NCBI GenBank assembly: GCA_944392595.1
Contig: CALXXD010000001.1
Coordinates: 3,008 to 67,007 of the forward strand
Length of the DNA: 64,000 nucleotides
Direction of reading: 5' to 3'
Source of the DNA: an uncultured Alphaproteobacteria bacterium
GTDB lineage: Bacteria > Pseudomonadota > Alphaproteobacteria > Rs-D84
A program made the translations under genes and the position numbers. The notes beneath the pieces were generated by a model. The model was given only the letters and a program-made list of their open reading frames with translations. It did no database searches and was not told where the DNA came from. Positions 19,259 through 55,036 of this stretch are shown piece by piece; within the stretch, counting starts at the first letter, position 1, and each line of letters opens with the position of its first letter.

Positions 19259-19290
19259 AACTCGGTTTTTATGTCGATAACTGGATTTAT

Positions 19291-19404
19291 TCTGGCGACG
19301 ACCTACTCTTCCGTGGCTTAAGCCAAAGTACCATCGGCGATACGGGGTTTCCCTGTCTGGTTCGGGATGGAACAGAGGGTGACTCCCGCTCTATAATCAC
19401 CAGA
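19291..19404 (-). rRNA. rrf: 5S ribosomal RNA
   Basis: The reverse complement reads tctggtgattatagagcgg...ccatcccgaaccag...gtactttgg...agtaggtcgtcgccaga. It is flanked by a complementary processing stem (ctggatttat / ataaatccag). Confidence 0.9.
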
Positions 19405-19504
19405 ATAAATCCAGCGAACAATCGTAAATTCAATCAACCTTGCTTTGAACTTACTCTTCAAGCATACGTTTGACTTCATAAAAAGTCAAACAAAAAGATA
19501 AAAA

Positions 19505-22240
<2,736 letters not shown>

Positions 22241-22543
22241 TTTTATCTTATGCTTGAAGAGAAAGTCCCCAAACACACAAATAACAAATTTAATGAGTTT
22301 TTAAGCATTAGTTGATTCTTGTCTTCTATTGAATTATCACTTTCGTGATTACTCTTCAGAAAGATTTTTGAGATTACGATGTTCAACAAATCAAAATCTT
22401 ATATTGCTATAAAATTCTAACTTGCGACATAAAAACCGATTAACAATGTATTGCTATAAAAGCAGATTCCGAGGATATTACGTTTGGAATATCTGGAATC
22501 AAAGATATTTCGTATCTTTGATTCCAACCTCATCAAAACTTCA

Positions 22544-22620
22544 TGGTGGGTCAGGAAGAACTCGAATCTTCGACCTCCGCTGTATCAGAGCGGCATTCTA
22601 ACCAACTGAACTACTGACCC
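22544..22620 (-). tRNA. tRNA-Ile (anticodon GAT), CCA encoded
   Basis: The reverse complement GGGTCAGTAGTTCAGTTGGTTAGAATGCCGCTCTGATACAGCGGAGGTCGAAGATTCGAGTTCTTCCTGACCCACCA folds as a 7/4/5/5 cloverleaf with anticodon loop CTGATAC. Confidence 0.95.
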
Positions 22621-22746
22621 AAGATTTATCCGGTGTACGAAATTATCCGTTATCAAATAGTTCCGCTGATACCAGAATCGTTTCAAAAAGAGATGTTCAG
22701 ACAGTCGTATTTGGATGACCGTTTTCGTGGAAACGGTATTCTCTAT

Positions 22747-24248
<1,502 letters not shown>

Positions 24249-43186: not shown

Positions 43187-45409
43187 ATGGTCGAAAAGTT
43201 CAAGATTTTATCCGCCGGTGGCAAAGGCAAAGGACTGAATATATTCAAATCGTCCGCGTATAAAGAAAGCCTGCGCACGCCAATGGCGTCGTTGTTTTGG
43301 TCACTGCGATGGGCGGTGGGGATTTGGTTGGTATGCGCAATCGCGTTTGGATTATCGTTTTGGATTGAACATATTTGGCGATACGGTTGGTCGCCCGCCA
43401 CGGTGCAATGGACCACGCTGTATTTTCAAAATATGCTGACCAGTGGTGGGATGTCCATTTTGGCCGAGGTTCCGGCCTGGTTCATGCGCAGTTTGTTGCG
43501 GACTGATATTATGTGCATAACGCCGCTGTTGCCGATTATCGCATATTATTTTATGGCGGACAGTACTTTGATAAAAGAATTCAACCCATACGGCAACGAT
43601 AAATTTGATGATAAATCGTCCAACAAAGCATCCAAAGAAGACATCGAAAAAATGGGGCTGTTAAAGGGCTTTATGATGGTGTTGGGATATTTCAAGAAAA
43701 AACCACTGATGATGAACGAATGTTTGTCCGCACTGTGCGTTGCGCCCCCGGGGACTGGTAAATCCCAAGGTGTTGTGTTTCCGACAATTTTTGAGTGCAA
43801 TACCGTGTCGATGATTATTAACGACCCAAAACCTGAATTGTATCAACAATCGTCCGCATATCGTGCGACAATCGGACCTGTGTTTATCATGAACTGGGCG
43901 GGTCAGGATGACCCAGAACGCGGCATATATTATCCATCGTGGAATCCGCTGTCGCCCGAACACGTGCCATCCAACCAAGAACAACGCGATTTGTATATCG
44001 ATTCTATGTGCAATGTGTTGATTTCGGATAAAGAGGCTTCATCCGCTGACCCGCACTGGACAATATCTGGGCGCGCGGCTTTGTCTGGGTTGATTCAATT
44101 TATGGTGTCCAAGGTTGAACGTGCCAAGGCCGACGATTATTTTTATTCACGCATAACGTCTGGGGCTTTTGATGCCGAAGATGCGGCCGTGTTGGGGGAT
44201 TATTATCTGTCTATGATGAGTGACCCGAACGCATACGCCGCATACGCAATGTTACAGCGCAATGAATTAAACGCCATGAATTATGTACATGTCGGTACGT
44301 GGGATAAAATCCCAGACGCATGGCGCGGACGTGAAGCGTCTTTGTCCATGATTTTGGACTGGATTAACAGCAGTCAAATTTCCCAGGCGCAACAAATCGA
44401 CGAACGTCGGCGGGCGGGCGATCAAATGGCTGCTTTGGCCGACCCGATGTATGATTTGTTTATGGGGGCGGTGGATGAAGCACGTCAATATGCGTATGCT
44501 CACCGCGCCATTTTGGAATTAACACAATTGGCAAACACACCCGATAAAGAACGTGGTTCAATCTTATCCACCGTGATGGAGGGATTGTCCATATTCCGTA
44601 ATGCCGCCGTGCGTAATCGCACAAGTCATTCTGATTTCCACTTTGCGGATTTGCGCGGAATGACCGATCCACGCGATGGCAAAGTAAAGCCGGTTACGGT
44701 ATATCTGTCGATTAACATGGTTGATGCCCAGGCGTTAAATCCAATTACGGGAATATTTATCGAACTGATGACTAATTTCTTGCTGTCCAATCCGCCGGAA
44801 TCCAAGAACGGCAATGTACGCATGGGGCCATGTCCTGTGTTGTTTGTGTTGGACGAAATGCCCAAAATGCAGAAGTTACAGGCCGTGATCCAGGGACCCG
44901 ATTTGGGGCGTGGGCAAAAGATTTCATACCTGATTATTGGCCAGGATATTCACCAGATTCAGGAAAAATACGGTGCAGATGCCGCTGCCACGATTATTTC
45001 CACAACCGCCGCAAAAATTGTTATGCGTCAAAATGATCCTGATACCGCACAGCGATTTTCCGATATGATGGGCAAAAAAATAAAAATTAAAACCGTCAAA
45101 GGCCCCGATGGGAAAGAAGTCGAAGAAAAATCCGAAGAACCACTGTTCAGCCCGATGGACATTATGAAATTGGATCACAAAAAACAATTGGTTATATTCC
45201 AGGGTTGGTACCACCGCCCAATCGAGGCTGATAAACAATTTGCGTTTGAAGACCCGCGGTTATCCAAATTTATGGCCATGGGGGCGTGCAGCCCATTGCC
45301 TGAATTTTTAATCCCGTCGCACCATGCGGCGTTGGGGTACAGTGGCAACCCACGGATATATATCCCCCAAACACAAGAAACCAAGGAATTAGAGCCTGTG
45401 AAAAAATAG
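43187..45409 (+). CDS. virD4: Type IV secretion coupling protein, VirD4/TraG family
   Basis: N-terminal TM helices, Walker A VAPPGTGKSQGVVFPT, Walker B VLFVLDEMPKM and the conserved IIGQDIHQIQEKYG block. Confidence 0.85.
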   Translation: MVEKFKILSAGGKGKGLNIFKSSAYKESLRTPMASLFWSLRWAVGIWLVCAIAFGLSFWIEHIWRYGWSPATVQWTTLYFQNMLTSGGMSILAEVPAWFMRSLLRTDIMCITPLLPIIAYYFMADSTLIKEFNPYGNDKFDDKSSNKASKEDIEKMGLLKGFMMVLGYFKKKPLMMNECLSALCVAPPGTGKSQGVVFPTIFECNTVSMIINDPKPELYQQSSAYRATIGPVFIMNWAGQDDPERGIYYPSWNPLSPEHVPSNQEQRDLYIDSMCNVLISDKEASSADPHWTISGRAALSGLIQFMVSKVERAKADDYFYSRITSGAFDAEDAAVLGDYYLSMMSDPNAYAAYAMLQRNELNAMNYVHVGTWDKIPDAWRGREASLSMILDWINSSQISQAQQIDERRRAGDQMAALADPMYDLFMGAVDEARQYAYAHRAILELTQLANTPDKERGSILSTVMEGLSIFRNAAVRNRTSHSDFHFADLRGMTDPRDGKVKPVTVYLSINMVDAQALNPITGIFIELMTNFLLSNPPESKNGNVRMGPCPVLFVLDEMPKMQKLQAVIQGPDLGRGQKISYLIIGQDIHQIQEKYGADAAATIISTTAAKIVMRQNDPDTAQRFSDMMGKKIKIKTVKGPDGKEVEEKSEEPLFSPMDIMKLDHKKQLVIFQGWYHRPIEADKQFAFEDPRLSKFMAMGACSPLPEFLIPSHHAALGYSGNPRIYIPQTQETKELEPVKK

Positions 45410-52604: not shown

Positions 52605-53345
52605 ATGAGACACGCGTACAGATTTTTCATCGCTGCATTATGTGCCGTAGTGTTGTCGGGATGTGCGGAACACGACCCGATTTTGCCGGGTGTGCGCACG
52701 CCTGTATTTAATACAAATGACATTCGCGTGATGGACGCAACTGTTGAAAATCTGCCGGATACAATTGATTCGACCGACGCGCCTGAATGCCCATACACCC
52801 AAGATTCATCCAATGTAATCTGGGATGGGGACAGAAAAATTTTCAGCGGATTTCCAACGAATAATTCTGTACAAAGCAATCAATCGCCAATCTGTGCAAA
52901 TGGATATGTGTATGCGGGTTTAACCACGGGCGAGGTTGTAAAAATCGCGCCAAAATCACGCAAAATAATCTGGATTGCCGATGTGTTCCGTCACAGCAAT
53001 ATGACCGGCGGTGCGTCAATTGTTGATATTATTGCGCCACTGGTTATACATAAAGGTGCGCTGTATGTCGGCGGATTGGGTGATGCATTTTGTCGTATTA
53101 ATACATCGTCTGGGGATAAAAAGTGGTGTGTTAATATCGGGGTTGCCGTACCATTTATTGTGATGGATAACGTCGCGTTTGTGGTGGCAACGGATAATAA
53201 CCTGTATGCGATTCGCACAACCGACGGCGCGGTATATTGGCGGACACCGGTAAAGAACCAGGTCGCACCAATATACAGCAACAAAATCATATCTGTTGGG
53301 GATATGAAAATAAACGCCGAAAATGGCGAAATTATTTCAGATTAA
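52605..53345 (+). CDS. bamB: PQQ-like beta-propeller lipoprotein, BamB-like but short (246 aa)
   Basis: The lipobox is VVLSGC|AE. Repeated G.vY.g...g.l.ai....G...W blades are present, for example NNLYAIRTTDGAVYWRTPV. It is much shorter than typical BamB. Confidence 0.5.
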   Translation: MRHAYRFFIAALCAVVLSGCAEHDPILPGVRTPVFNTNDIRVMDATVENLPDTIDSTDAPECPYTQDSSNVIWDGDRKIFSGFPTNNSVQSNQSPICANGYVYAGLTTGEVVKIAPKSRKIIWIADVFRHSNMTGGASIVDIIAPLVIHKGALYVGGLGDAFCRINTSSGDKKWCVNIGVAVPFIVMDNVAFVVATDNNLYAIRTTDGAVYWRTPVKNQVAPIYSNKIISVGDMKINAENGEIISD

Positions 53346-53352
53346 TTATAAT

Positions 53353-54294
53353 TTATGACTGTGTTTGGATAGATGGGCCCTGGATAAACCATGCGAACCC
53401 CAATAAATTTGATGAAATTGATGCTATACGGAACTGATTTTGGCTTTTGGCATAAATAACCGTCATGCCATAATGCCCAGAATGCGTCGATTCAGGTGTC
53501 ATATTGGTCACCAAAACGCCGTACGTGGAATTTTGCATTGCAACCGGGATTGTCACCGTTACCAATTCAAGATCTTGGGATGCGGGCGCGATACCACCCT
53601 GCTCTACCCAGCCTGATTTGTACAGTCGATACCATGTATAATTATTTGCAGCCGTTGGCAATTGAGTTTTTACCACGACATCTGGTTCATCGTCTTCGTC
53701 AAATTGCAATGTGCTTTCAGATATTTCAGAAATTGTCTGCTCGAACTCGGAATTCGTTACATAATTTTCATGCGTATGGGTTACTGGCGCAAAATTTGCA
53801 GCATTTGGAACTTCGTTAAGTTTGGCATATTCTGTTAAATCCGGCAAATCAGATTTACGCGCCAATTCACTTAAATCCCCGATTTCTGTGATTTGGGCTT
53901 GGACAGAATCCAAAAATTGCATGCCGTTTTCAATATTTGCTGCGTGTCCGTCAATATCATAGATGTCACGCAGATATTCCATCAAAAAATTAAAATCTGC
54001 ATTCAAACTGGCTGTGCTGATTGGCAAAGTTGGTTGATAATCAACCGTGCGCGTCAGTTCGATTTTACGCCAGATACTGATAACCGCCCCAATGTTTGGC
54101 GTATCGGTTAATACAATGCGGCCACCTGCGTATCTGCCGTCCATTGTGGAATCCGGTGTTGGCACGATGGTATAATGCCCCGAATCCAACAATTGGGAAT
54201 TTACAGAAATTTTTATATCTGCGTCTTGGAAATAAGGAAATGTAAATGGGTATTCATGCGTAGATCCGTCACCCGTGTATGTTATTTTATACAT
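53353..54294 (-). CDS. Phage-type tail-fibre protein (T7 gp17-like N-terminal domain, HTH..Y motif, C-terminal knob)
   Basis: MYKITYTGDGSTHEYPFTFPYFQDADIKISVN... and ISIWRKIELTRTVDYQP...LNADFNFLMEYLRD parallel the T7 tail-fibre N-terminal domain. VTHTHENY and the C-terminal YTWYRLYKSGWVEQGG block are common in tail-fibre receptor-binding tips. The start was chosen at the ATG at 54294, which is preceded by AAGGA. Confidence 0.65.
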   Translation of the reverse strand: MYKITYTGDGSTHEYPFTFPYFQDADIKISVNSQLLDSGHYTIVPTPDSTMDGRYAGGRIVLTDTPNIGAVISIWRKIELTRTVDYQPTLPISTASLNADFNFLMEYLRDIYDIDGHAANIENGMQFLDSVQAQITEIGDLSELARKSDLPDLTEYAKLNEVPNAANFAPVTHTHENYVTNSEFEQTISEISESTLQFDEDDEPDVVVKTQLPTAANNYTWYRLYKSGWVEQGGIAPASQDLELVTVTIPVAMQNSTYGVLVTNMTPESTHSGHYGMTVIYAKSQNQFRIASISSNLLGFAWFIQGPSIQTQS

Positions 54295-54320
54295 CAAAAA
54301 ATCCTTTTGTTTTTTATGTA

Positions 54321-54379
54321 AAAAAAAGTGGCAAAAGCCACGACTGTTAAAAAAATCGGGCGCACGGATGTGTGCGCCC
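54321..54379 (-). terminator. Two consecutive terminator-like hairpins in the leader of the tail-fibre gene
   Basis: On the minus strand: gggcgcaca-catc-cgtgcgccc + gattttttt, then gtggc-tttt-gccac + tttttttt. Confidence 0.6.
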
Positions 54380-54402
54380 AATTCCAATATGTTTGTGACC
54401 CG

Positions 54403-54431
54403 ATTATATCACAAAACGCGATAAAAATCAA
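54403..54431 (-). promoter_or_regulatory. Near-consensus sigma70 promoter with extended -10
   Basis: On the minus strand: TTGATT-N17 (ending ttttgTGa)-TATAAT. It lies between the Yip1-gene stop and the two hairpins. Confidence 0.55.
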
Positions 54432-54439
54432 GCCAACAG

Positions 54440-55036
54440 TTACAGCATGCACGATAAAGTCGCGCTGGTATTTTTCAACATAAACCATCCAATACGGTAA
54501 TCTGTCGCATAAACCGTGATTAAAAATAACGCAAATATCGCAATTACAATTAATACGTTACTGCGTTTGCCGCGCATGCAATACAGCGCAATGTTATAAA
54601 ACAAGAACAATACATACGCATCTACAATCAAACTGATTATCCACATTGATATGCAATTAAACGCCAAAGCATTCAAAACCAACACAACTGGATAAACAAA
54701 AAATACAGACGCCAAACCCTTTATCGCAATTTCCCAATCACGTTCGCCACCGGTAATTTCAGATACCAACATCATCAATCCGCCCAGCACAAACAATAAT
54801 GCGACCGCCAAAACCGGGACAATGATTAACGCGGTGAATACAGAACCAATCGTGATTGTTGCACCGCCAATTAACCGCAGTAACAATACCAAGCATCCGC
54901 CCAAAAGACCGTATATAAACGCCTTTAACATCGCTTCTTCCATATTGCCGTCGGCGACAATTTTGGTAAAATAGCGTTTTGGATTAATTATCAAATCACG
55001 GATTTTCTTTAAACCATTTTTGATTTTTTTCATCAT
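54440..55036 (-). CDS. Yip1-family (DUF1282-like) integral membrane protein
   Basis: The N-terminal ...INPKRYFTKIVADGNMEEAMLKAFIYGLLGG is followed by 5 TM helices. A GGGGGT RBS is present. Confidence 0.5.
   Translation of the reverse strand: MMKKIKNGLKKIRDLIINPKRYFTKIVADGNMEEAMLKAFIYGLLGGCLVLLLRLIGGATITIGSVFTALIIVPVLAVALLFVLGGLMMLVSEITGGERDWEIAIKGLASVFFVYPVVLVLNALAFNCISMWIISLIVDAYVLFLFYNIALYCMRGKRSNVLIVIAIFALFLITVYATDYRIGWFMLKNTSATLSCML

Follow-up and report, generated by a model that had tools for sequence, protein, structure and literature searches.

The 64-kb stretch of chromosome analysed here (the window) comes from a chicken-gut 'Candidatus Enterousia' (order Rs-D84) and contains, among housekeeping genes, a gene whose product of 313 amino acids (aa) looks like the tail fibre of a phage. 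What does such a gene do there? Bacteria of the Rs-D84 lineage have genomes of <1 Mb with high coding density and no pseudogene build-up, lack respiration and many biosynthetic pathways, and are predicted to be obligately partner-dependent, as symbionts or parasites that need cell contact (PMC12306168). We confirmed that the gene is a real, intact phage-type tail-fibre gene. The role that we consider most probable, at roughly 0.55, is that of a remote receptor-binding fibre for a chromosomally fixed, podovirus-type particle resembling a gene transfer agent (GTA).

A phage-type fibre gene in a housekeeping neighbourhood

An earlier sequence-only reading of this DNA had described a 313-aa product with a T7 gp17-like N-terminus and a C-terminal block typical of receptor-binding knobs. 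Our analysis bears out each of these points and places the gene, an intact open reading frame (ORF), on the minus strand. All of the motifs that it quoted were found (ITYTGDGST, FTFPYF, IKISVN, ISIWRKIELTRTVDYQP, LNADFNFL, HTHENY and YTWYRLYKSGWVEQGG). We set the start at the ATG at 54294 because all homologues begin at MYKITYTGDG, and a TTG-extended reading of 344 aa was rejected for the same reason. One protein in public data (P0001) is 99% identical to the window fibre.

The N-terminal domain matched PHROG 1640 ('tail protein', 1.6e-13) and the Pfam family PF03906 (Phage_T7_tail, E = 2.3e-5), the latter with 24.5 bits, 0.7 bit below the gathering score of 25.2. A Foldseek search aligned it with the N-domains of podovirus fibres, with values from 5e-6 to 3e-2 (LME-1, 5e-6; Carin-1, 2e-5; also T7 gp17, Kp7 and Kp9), and a search of BFVD returned 238 matches at E ≤ 1e-3, mainly podovirus fibres and adaptors. 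The AlphaFold2 (AF2) monomer model continues with a long helix (residues 94–139) and ends in a confident β-sandwich. Residues 138–199 were modelled with low confidence; overall, the region of residues ~95–200 is helical or poorly predicted, and its length differs among relatives. Between docking domain and knob, 12-aa ATKDEIPDxSNx units repeated in tandem and long insertions into the stalk give rise to this length polymorphism (the stalks of P0008, P0022 and P0024; the fibre in L023 reaches 596 aa).

The knob, with a predicted local distance difference test score of 83–91, has the fold of the R2/R1 pyocin fibre foot (6ct8, 6cl6, 6cxb) and of AP22 gp53 (4mtm) according to Foldseek, accompanied by a weak match to the Pfam family Gp53-like_C (PF21882, E = 0.069). 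The structure search on the monomer model thus recovered tail-fibre domains at both ends of the protein. At the sequence level, the fibre had no significant match in the PDB and only four weak N-domain matches among cultured-phage genomes (INPHARED). Inspection of the N-terminus revealed no signal peptide or anchor; MYKITYTGDG is the beginning of the docking fold.

Locally, the gene is an orphan, as the sequence-only reading had stated. Its stop codon lies 7 nt from that of a convergent gene for a 246-aa BamB-like protein (ending at 53345), the surroundings consist of housekeeping genes, and no phage, GTA or integrase genes lie within 20 kb. It therefore does not sit within a structural module beside tail genes, where gp17-type fibres are encoded, nor in an integrated prophage with an integrase, att repeats and neighbouring phage genes: no att-like repeat pairs flank it, the att-like and inversion repeats around it are short and at chance level only, and the locus is syntenic in relatives. 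The 64-kb window holds no second knob or T7-type domain.

The position of the fibre, in the order der, a 198-aa membrane protein, fibre and, further on, bamB-like, is conserved in at least eight related species. Across these species, the flanking proteins are 63–96% identical to those of the window, mostly 75–96%, with the BamB-like protein lowest (63–75%). The fibre is the fastest-evolving gene at the locus, its N-domain being 54–68% and its hypervariable knob 27–48% identical to the syntenic orthologues. All copies are intact in the species examined, and the docking domain retains invariant residues.

A chromosomal T7-like cluster with a paralogous fibre

We searched IMG/VR with a six-sequence alignment of the fibre N-domain and recovered 38 'viral' contigs, most of them ~10.5 kb long and all with one fixed gene order. 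Annotation with PHROG and Pfam yielded the families Phage_T7_Capsid, Head-tail_con, Terminase-T7_RNaseH-like, phrog_394 and phrog_376. Read in order, the cluster encodes a scaffold protein, the major capsid protein, two tail proteins (gp11-like and gp12-like), a protein of 115 aa, a knobless fibre of 182 aa and the ATPase half of the terminase; genes for a 214-aa protein, a helix-turn-helix (HTH) regulator and DnaB follow on the opposite strand, and after these come the terminase's nuclease half and the portal. The large terminase is thus split into an ATPase ORF and a T7 RNaseH-like nuclease ORF (L175:12603-17354; also L178, L043 and L096). The ~3.4-kb interruption, with genes for the 214-aa protein and a double-HTH regulator as well as a dnaB of cellular type, was the same in all loci seen.

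This cluster exists as a fixed part of the chromosome. Its flanks are alike in different species: one holds LpxI, a tRNA methyltransferase and BirA, the other UPF0102. L175 and L178 share these flanks, and the cluster is syntenic in L175–L179 and L043. Its divergence tracks that of the flanks: cluster genes are 67–92% identical (capsid 92%, portal 88%, nozzle 67%), as against 53–93% for flanking genes. The gp12-like nozzle protein has 1073 relatives. Among the best 120 of these 1073, almost all are 568–570 aa long, with 65–100% identity to the query; many of them come from contigs of 150–320 kb labelled Alphaproteobacteria. The enclosed DnaB scores above the cutoffs of the cellular equivalogs (609 > 540; 509 > 385) and below that of phage_DnaB (413 < 499). 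In ~20 kb around the cluster we found no integrase, polymerase or recognisable lysis gene, while several small ORFs and the HTH regulator remained without assignment. The capsid gene has its own pair of conserved tandem terminators.

Judged by these gene contents, the cluster appears to have the profile of a domesticated, GTA-like element rather than of free phages. Synteny and in-step divergence are those of a vertically inherited chromosomal head–tail cluster, as a GTA would have. The genes belong to T7-type families, not to the HK97/siphovirus genes of the Rhodobacter capsulatus GTA (RcGTA). A tailocin would be headless; here, capsid, portal and terminase are present and sheath and tube genes are missing.

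Upstream of the cluster, an intergenic region (L175:4541-4913, L178:4534-4877) includes ~200 nt that are almost identical between the two species and contain a GGGCCC...GGGCCC pairing. This stretch, which had no Rfam match at gathering score, may have a regulatory role or encode a structured RNA.

The fibre and the cluster are connected in three ways. First, the docking domain of the fibre and the 182-aa short fibre of the cluster are paralogues with 39–50% identity; long and short fibres share MYKI[ST]YTGDG..F.FP[FY]FQ, RVIDYQPT and LN.DFNF and diverge after residue ~115. Second, in L043, a 166-kb contig of a metagenome-assembled genome, the short fibre is absent from the cluster and the 115-aa gene runs straight into the terminase, and, past the portal, ppiD-like, tpiA and grpE are followed, at a distance of 3.3 kb, by a knobbed T7-type fibre with its glycan cassette. 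Third, three of the sequencing runs that hold the window (X1, X2 and X9, all mixed communities) also have, at matching depth, contigs collinear with the whole cluster, none of them physically joined to the window contig. Their depths were 48–57 versus 51.8 for the window contig in X1, and 17.5 for a 10.7-kb contig versus 19.6 in X9, which suggests that the window organism probably carries the cluster as well. The X9 contig comes within ~54 nt of the L043-type arrangement and is 557 nt shorter than the short-fibre arrangement, an indirect hint that the window gene may be its organism's only T7-type fibre.

One candidate role raised by the sequence-only reading was that of an accessory fibre whose gene lies apart from the main cluster of a GTA or tailocin. 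The GTA part of this suggestion gains support from the paralogous docking domain, the L043 linkage and the match in depth; the tailocin part falls with the head, portal and terminase of the cluster.

Could the cluster instead be an active or recently active minimal temperate podovirus, with the window gene as an alternative host-range fibre parked in the chromosome? The ~10.5-kb versions are indeed listed as viral genomes in IMG/VR, an HTH repressor-like gene and a DnaB-family helicase are what small temperate phages carry, and the knobs are exchanged with bona fide phages (see below). Against this stand the shared flanks in different species with in-step divergence, the lack of an integrase, polymerase or recognisable lysis gene and the cellular-equivalog scores of DnaB; moreover, a fibre gene elsewhere in the chromosome cannot travel with the phage. 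The capsid gene is precisely where the IMG/VR entries L095–L132 begin, a boundary expected of trimmed provirus calls, and they are probably such calls rather than free phage genomes. We regard a resident podovirus as unlikely.

Knob exchange, glycan cassettes and the fibre leader

Knobs are exchanged between these chromosomal fibres and phages, and the knob of the window fibre has itself been swapped. A segment of it matches, at DNA level, a fibre-tip gene on a phage contig (Table 1) that also has Dit-like and baseplate genes. In a sister genome (L015), DNA identity is 83–88% on both sides, with no homology across 53348–53590 of the window, the variable part of the knob. A second case is the knob of P0008, 81% identical to one knob of P0050, a fibre encoded on a portal-bearing phage contig. 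Within the window's species, strain-level replacement of the knob was not seen: four runs held the same allele with ~1% single-nucleotide polymorphisms, and none of the four held a frameshifted or truncated allele.

Two observations concern the structure of related loci. The fibre in L020 is inverted relative to the usual der–bamB synteny, which may reflect inversion or phase variation. Some chromosomal fibres (L022, L023, L077) are followed by a gene of 113–126 aa that groups by sequence with the one next to a phage fibre on L014 (4718-5059), annotated Phage_tail_APC. This gene may encode a fibre-assembly chaperone; the window has no such gene.

We surveyed 63 non-redundant chromosomal knob genes, whose N-termini are either T7-type or of the unrelated Mtd_N type. 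The next downstream gene was convergent in 59 of the 63. Glycan-synthesis genes occurred among the next five downstream genes of 50/63 knob genes and among the upstream genes of 4/63; counted by gene, this is 116/307 downstream versus 6/300 upstream (p = 1.6e-32). They include GT2, GT4, DegT aminotransferase, epimerases, hexapeptide acetyltransferases, UDP-galactopyranose mutase, RgpF, LicD and PIG-L, while the upstream contexts of the knob genes vary widely among loci. Knob pairs with at least 55% identity shared downstream glycan genes in 5/6 cases, versus 1–2% of other pairs (p = 7e-9), and sharing was still 4/5 versus 0.9% where the upstream contexts differed. In L068 and L091, identical knobs are joined to unrelated N-termini, and DNA homology starts exactly at the knob-entry motif and runs into the genes for DegT and GT2. 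The knob is therefore linked to its glycan cassette, and the two behave as a single exchangeable unit. No cassette adjoins the gene in the window and in its nearest relatives (L015, L018, L020–L023), which are in the minority.

Serine recombinase or resolvase genes (~200 aa, sometimes in divergent pairs) recur near the knob–glycan loci (L045, L069, L071, L083, L084 and L068:13482-14054) and may reflect inversion or phase variation. Another Rs-D84 genome has, at L012:6851-20394, a single glycan cluster with an Mtd_N-type knob gene on either side, both convergent on it; one of the two directly follows virB4 and a gene for a secreted 204-aa protein. Type IV secretion genes are scattered singly in these small genomes.

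The fibre gene has a leader of its own, a promoter followed by two terminator-like hairpins (Table 1). Among the eight syntenic species, the promoter is almost invariant, and the paired sequences of the hairpins differ with the pairing kept. The leader folds with an energy of −32.5 kcal/mol (z = −4.05). Promoter and terminator consensus counts at the locus do not exceed the shuffled expectation, and the argument accordingly rests on conservation, not on the scan. The promoter motif precedes 62/74 chromosomal knob genes versus 37/1247 other ORFs; together with at least one hairpin and T-run, it precedes 60/74 (~81%, both N-terminal types) versus 7/1247 (p = 7e-82). Phage-borne copies of the knobs are without the leader, and that of the fibre is the sole promoter-plus-hairpin match in the window. 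No Rfam family matches it.

The late genes of lambdoid phages are controlled by a promoter that reads through intrinsic terminators. By this analogy, we infer that fibre expression may be gated by antitermination-type control. The likeness to the late control of lambda (pR', tR', Q) lies in a strong conserved promoter and then intrinsic terminators ahead of a late structural gene. It is an architectural resemblance only: here, there are two terminators, no Q-like protein was identified, and the motif is found at scattered chromosomal fibre genes but is missing from the structural cluster.

Many rumen-type knob genes (leaders of L025–L072, e.g., L029:9883-10000) have a perfect palindrome, TTGTTATAACAA, after the second terminator and ahead of the ribosome-binding site. 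Of its 35 occurrences in 2.7 Mb, 33 are within 200 nt of a knob-gene start, making it a candidate operator.

Three metatranscriptome runs hold contigs over parts of the fibre gene, with depths similar to those of the neighbouring housekeeping genes. One such contig (X32) spans the convergent bamB-like/fibre-knob junction (window 53110–53601), either by read-through across the 7-nt gap or by DNA carry-over.

Table 1. Positions of the fibre gene, its domains, its leader and the adjacent membrane-protein gene in the window
Feature	Position	Strand	Basis or remark
Fibre coding sequence, 313 aa and stop	53353..54294	-	ORF list; start placed by comparison with 27 aligned homologues
T7 gp17-type tail-docking domain, aa 1–115	53950..54294	-	PF03906, PHROG 1640, Foldseek, BFVD
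Helical stalk, aa 116–205, with conserved HTH[EDN] motif	53680..53949	-	AF2 model; length varies among homologues
C-terminal knob, aa 206–313: entry motif QLPTAxNNYTWYRxYKSGWVEQGG, then hypervariable β-sandwich	53353..53679	-	AF2, Foldseek
Knob segment exchanged with phages	53389..53634		Matches the fibre-tip gene of phage contig L009 (87% at DNA level, 246 nt)
Promoter: TTGATT, 17-nt spacer, extended -10 TGTGATATAAT	54403..54431	-	Conserved in 8 syntenic species
Leader hairpin 1 (GGGCGCAC / GTGCGCCC), then T-run; terminator-like	54349..54385	-	Sequence; cross-species conservation
Leader hairpin 2 (GTGGC / GCCAC), then T8; terminator-like	54320..54341	-	Sequence; cross-species conservation
Ribosome-binding site AAGGA, 7 nt 5' of ATG	54302..54306	-	AAAGGA(G) kept in relatives' leaders
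198-aa multi-pass membrane protein	54440-55036	-	Directly upstream of fibre, same strand; no family match

The other genes around the fibre encode DnaX, LpxD, a tetratricopeptide-repeat protein, pseudouridine synthases, VirD4/TraG, MutS, a sigma factor, the BamB-like protein, Der, IF2, NusA, LptFG and LptD. The 198-aa membrane protein is 94% identical in L001 and far better conserved than the fibre. We rejected it as a conserved partner: it accompanies the fibre only in the der–bamB synteny group, and the upstream genes elsewhere are unrelated. The BamB-like protein (52605–53345, plus strand) matches only positions 89–233 of the 233-position PQQ_2/BamB profile and keeps its size of 246 aa in relatives, which suggests a shortened β-propeller. 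A stand-alone VirD4/TraG gene lies at 43187–45409. The rRNA operon (19290–24248, minus strand) has the order 16S, tRNA-Ile, 23S and 5S, with tRNA-Ile as the only spacer tRNA found; its 23S match covers 2,749 nt for a model of 2,925 positions, and relatives have 23S_rRNA_IVP genes near the region.

From an orphan fibre to a proposed GTA-like particle

Put together, these data are best accommodated by the following model. A trimeric receptor-binding fibre would belong to a phage-derived particle resident in the Rs-D84/'Ca. Enterousia' chromosome, with head and tail genes supplied by the separate, vertically inherited T7-like cluster. Residues 1–115 are predicted to dock at the junction of adaptor and nozzle, as in T7 gp17, with the stalk spacing out the lectin-like C-terminal knob, which would bind a surface polysaccharide on target cells. 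In most relatives, where the fibre gene stands tail-to-tail with a glycan cassette, knob and glycan would be inherited and exchanged together, so that particles match cells with the same glycan; phages of these bacteria would trade the same knobs. The fibre-specific leader, with its promoter and tandem intrinsic terminators, would gate expression and probably needs antitermination. The particle would most likely serve GTA-like DNA delivery of a podovirus type, since head, portal and terminase are present and no replication or integration module is visible.

The docking step has its nearest precedent in T7 gp17 and the short adaptors of SP6/K1-5-type phages. These have an N-domain that docks a trimeric fibre at the gp11–gp12 junction, a helical shaft and a C-terminal receptor-binding domain, a plan that the window fibre would share, and the 182-aa knobless paralogue in the cluster resembles the adaptor-only versions of SP6/K1-5-type podoviruses. 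T7 gp17 is 553 aa long. The window fibre differs from it in being chromosomal, away from tail genes and shorter (313 aa), and in having a knob of another fold family (pyocin foot/gp53-like). That knob shares its small lectin-like β-sandwich with the R-type pyocin foot (PA0620) and the C-terminal domain of AP22 gp53. The pyocin fibre foot binds sugars of lipopolysaccharide. The sequence similarity to these proteins is marginal, as the PF21882 score indicates, and the particle predicted here is non-contractile and has a head.

In organisation, the closest known system is RcGTA. Its 'genome' consists of five loci, two of which are remote, serve cell recognition and are subject to virus-mediated transfer (PMC5026251), and its tail fibre and head spike bind capsular polysaccharide (PMC10218006). 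The likeness lies in receptor-binding proteins encoded away from the head–tail cluster (in R. capsulatus, the fibre rcc00171 and the spikes ghsA/ghsB), in virus-mediated transfer of the recognition loci and in a target that is the producer species' own surface polysaccharide (PMC5026251, PMC10218006). RcGTA is siphovirus-like, whereas the cluster described here is T7/podovirus-like, and has no RcGTA homology that we could see; the fibres here, in addition, adjoin and co-transfer with glycan cassettes and have a dedicated terminator-gated leader. RcGTA is under GafA/CtrA-type control. By homology, the window fibre falls in no characterised GTA family, and its analogy with RcGTA is one of organisation only. 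To our knowledge, all well-studied GTAs are long-tailed, and a literature search found no podovirus-type GTA.

Might the fibre work without a particle? A host- or prey-recognition fibre used by the cell itself was the other role considered in the sequence-only reading. Bdellovibrio mosaic adhesive trimer (MAT) fibres are chromosomal, phage-fibre-like trimers with swappable tips that the predator cell displays. The window fibre differs from them in having an N-domain that is built for docking on phage tails and is paralogous to one encoded in a head–tail cluster, and in lacking an export signal by inspection, which makes a cell-displayed fibre the less likely of the two roles. The same evidence bears on a more general proposal, a cell-associated lectin or adhesin that binds either the cell's own polysaccharide, for capsule anchoring or kin aggregation, or the glycan of a partner cell. 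The tight linkage of knob and glycan cassette and the occurrence of one knob and one leader on two N-terminal types agree with it, as does the predicted need of Rs-D84 symbionts or parasites for contact with other cells (PMC12306168). A surface protein of this kind should, on the other hand, have a signal peptide or anchor; its N-terminus would not be expected to be specifically a podovirus tail-docking fold paralogous to the cluster's own fibre, nor the L043 fibre to adjoin a cluster that has none, and a terminator-gated leader is more like late-gene control than that of a constitutive surface protein. We consider such an adhesin as improbable as a resident podovirus.

Still less probable is an anti-phage decoy, a host-made fibre that masks the glycan receptor or spoils the tails of infecting T7-type phages. 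Such a decoy could explain why the knobs are near-identical to those of phages presumably using the same receptor and why the fibre evolves fastest at its locus, as an arms race predicts, and the leader could give infection-inducible expression. It would leave the conserved capsid–portal–terminase cluster and the L043 arrangement unexplained, the phages with matching knobs use Mtd_N-type tips on baseplates rather than T7-type docking, and no known defence gene adjoins the fibre (the PADLOC library was not searched). A decaying prophage remnant without current function, to which the local isolation from other phage genes might point, is very improbable given a gene that is intact in every species examined, with invariant docking-domain residues and a dedicated conserved promoter and leader, in a streamlined genome of <1 Mb and with a position unchanged among species that differ by 4–37% in the flanking proteins.

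Several points weigh against the GTA-like particle that we favour. The particle, its packaging and its transfer are predicted from gene content, and the proteins of the cluster were not found in the 64-kb window, their presence in the organism resting on depth-matched contigs from mixed communities. In most clusters, there is already a gene for a short fibre that has this docking domain and no knob, which leaves stoichiometry or competition at the tail unexplained, and many genomes also have Mtd_N-type knob proteins, for which the model gives no docking route; speculatively, these may attach to the conserved C-terminal peptide of the short fibre. The data give no sign of a shared regulon of fibre and cluster, as neither the promoter–terminator motif nor the TTGTTATAACAA palindrome was found in the cluster loci. 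Metatranscriptome support is thin, with DNA carry-over possible. In the window itself, no glycan cassette adjoins the fibre gene that might point to the receptor of its knob.

A wider proposal is that Rs-D84/Enterousia bacteria keep an undescribed T7-type GTA whose fibres, placed beside glycan cassettes and co-transferred with them, form self-matching 'key next to lock' modules that direct DNA to cells with the same glycan, under an antitermination leader and with re-tipping by phages. We put this forward tentatively, as a reading somewhat less likely than not.

The listing of chromosomal clusters as ~10.5-kb viral genomes in IMG/VR will mislead virome surveys, and the conserved promoter–terminator leader offers a testable new regulatory element. 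A T7-type GTA in a genome of <1 Mb, if true, would widen the known range of phage domestication and would suggest that retaining a means of gene exchange is worth its cost even to extremely streamlined symbionts. The linkage of a knob to the cassette for the glycan that it presumably recognises would provide a simple genetic means of keeping donors matched to recipients even as phage pressure drives their surface antigens apart, and phages may obtain ready-made keys from their hosts.

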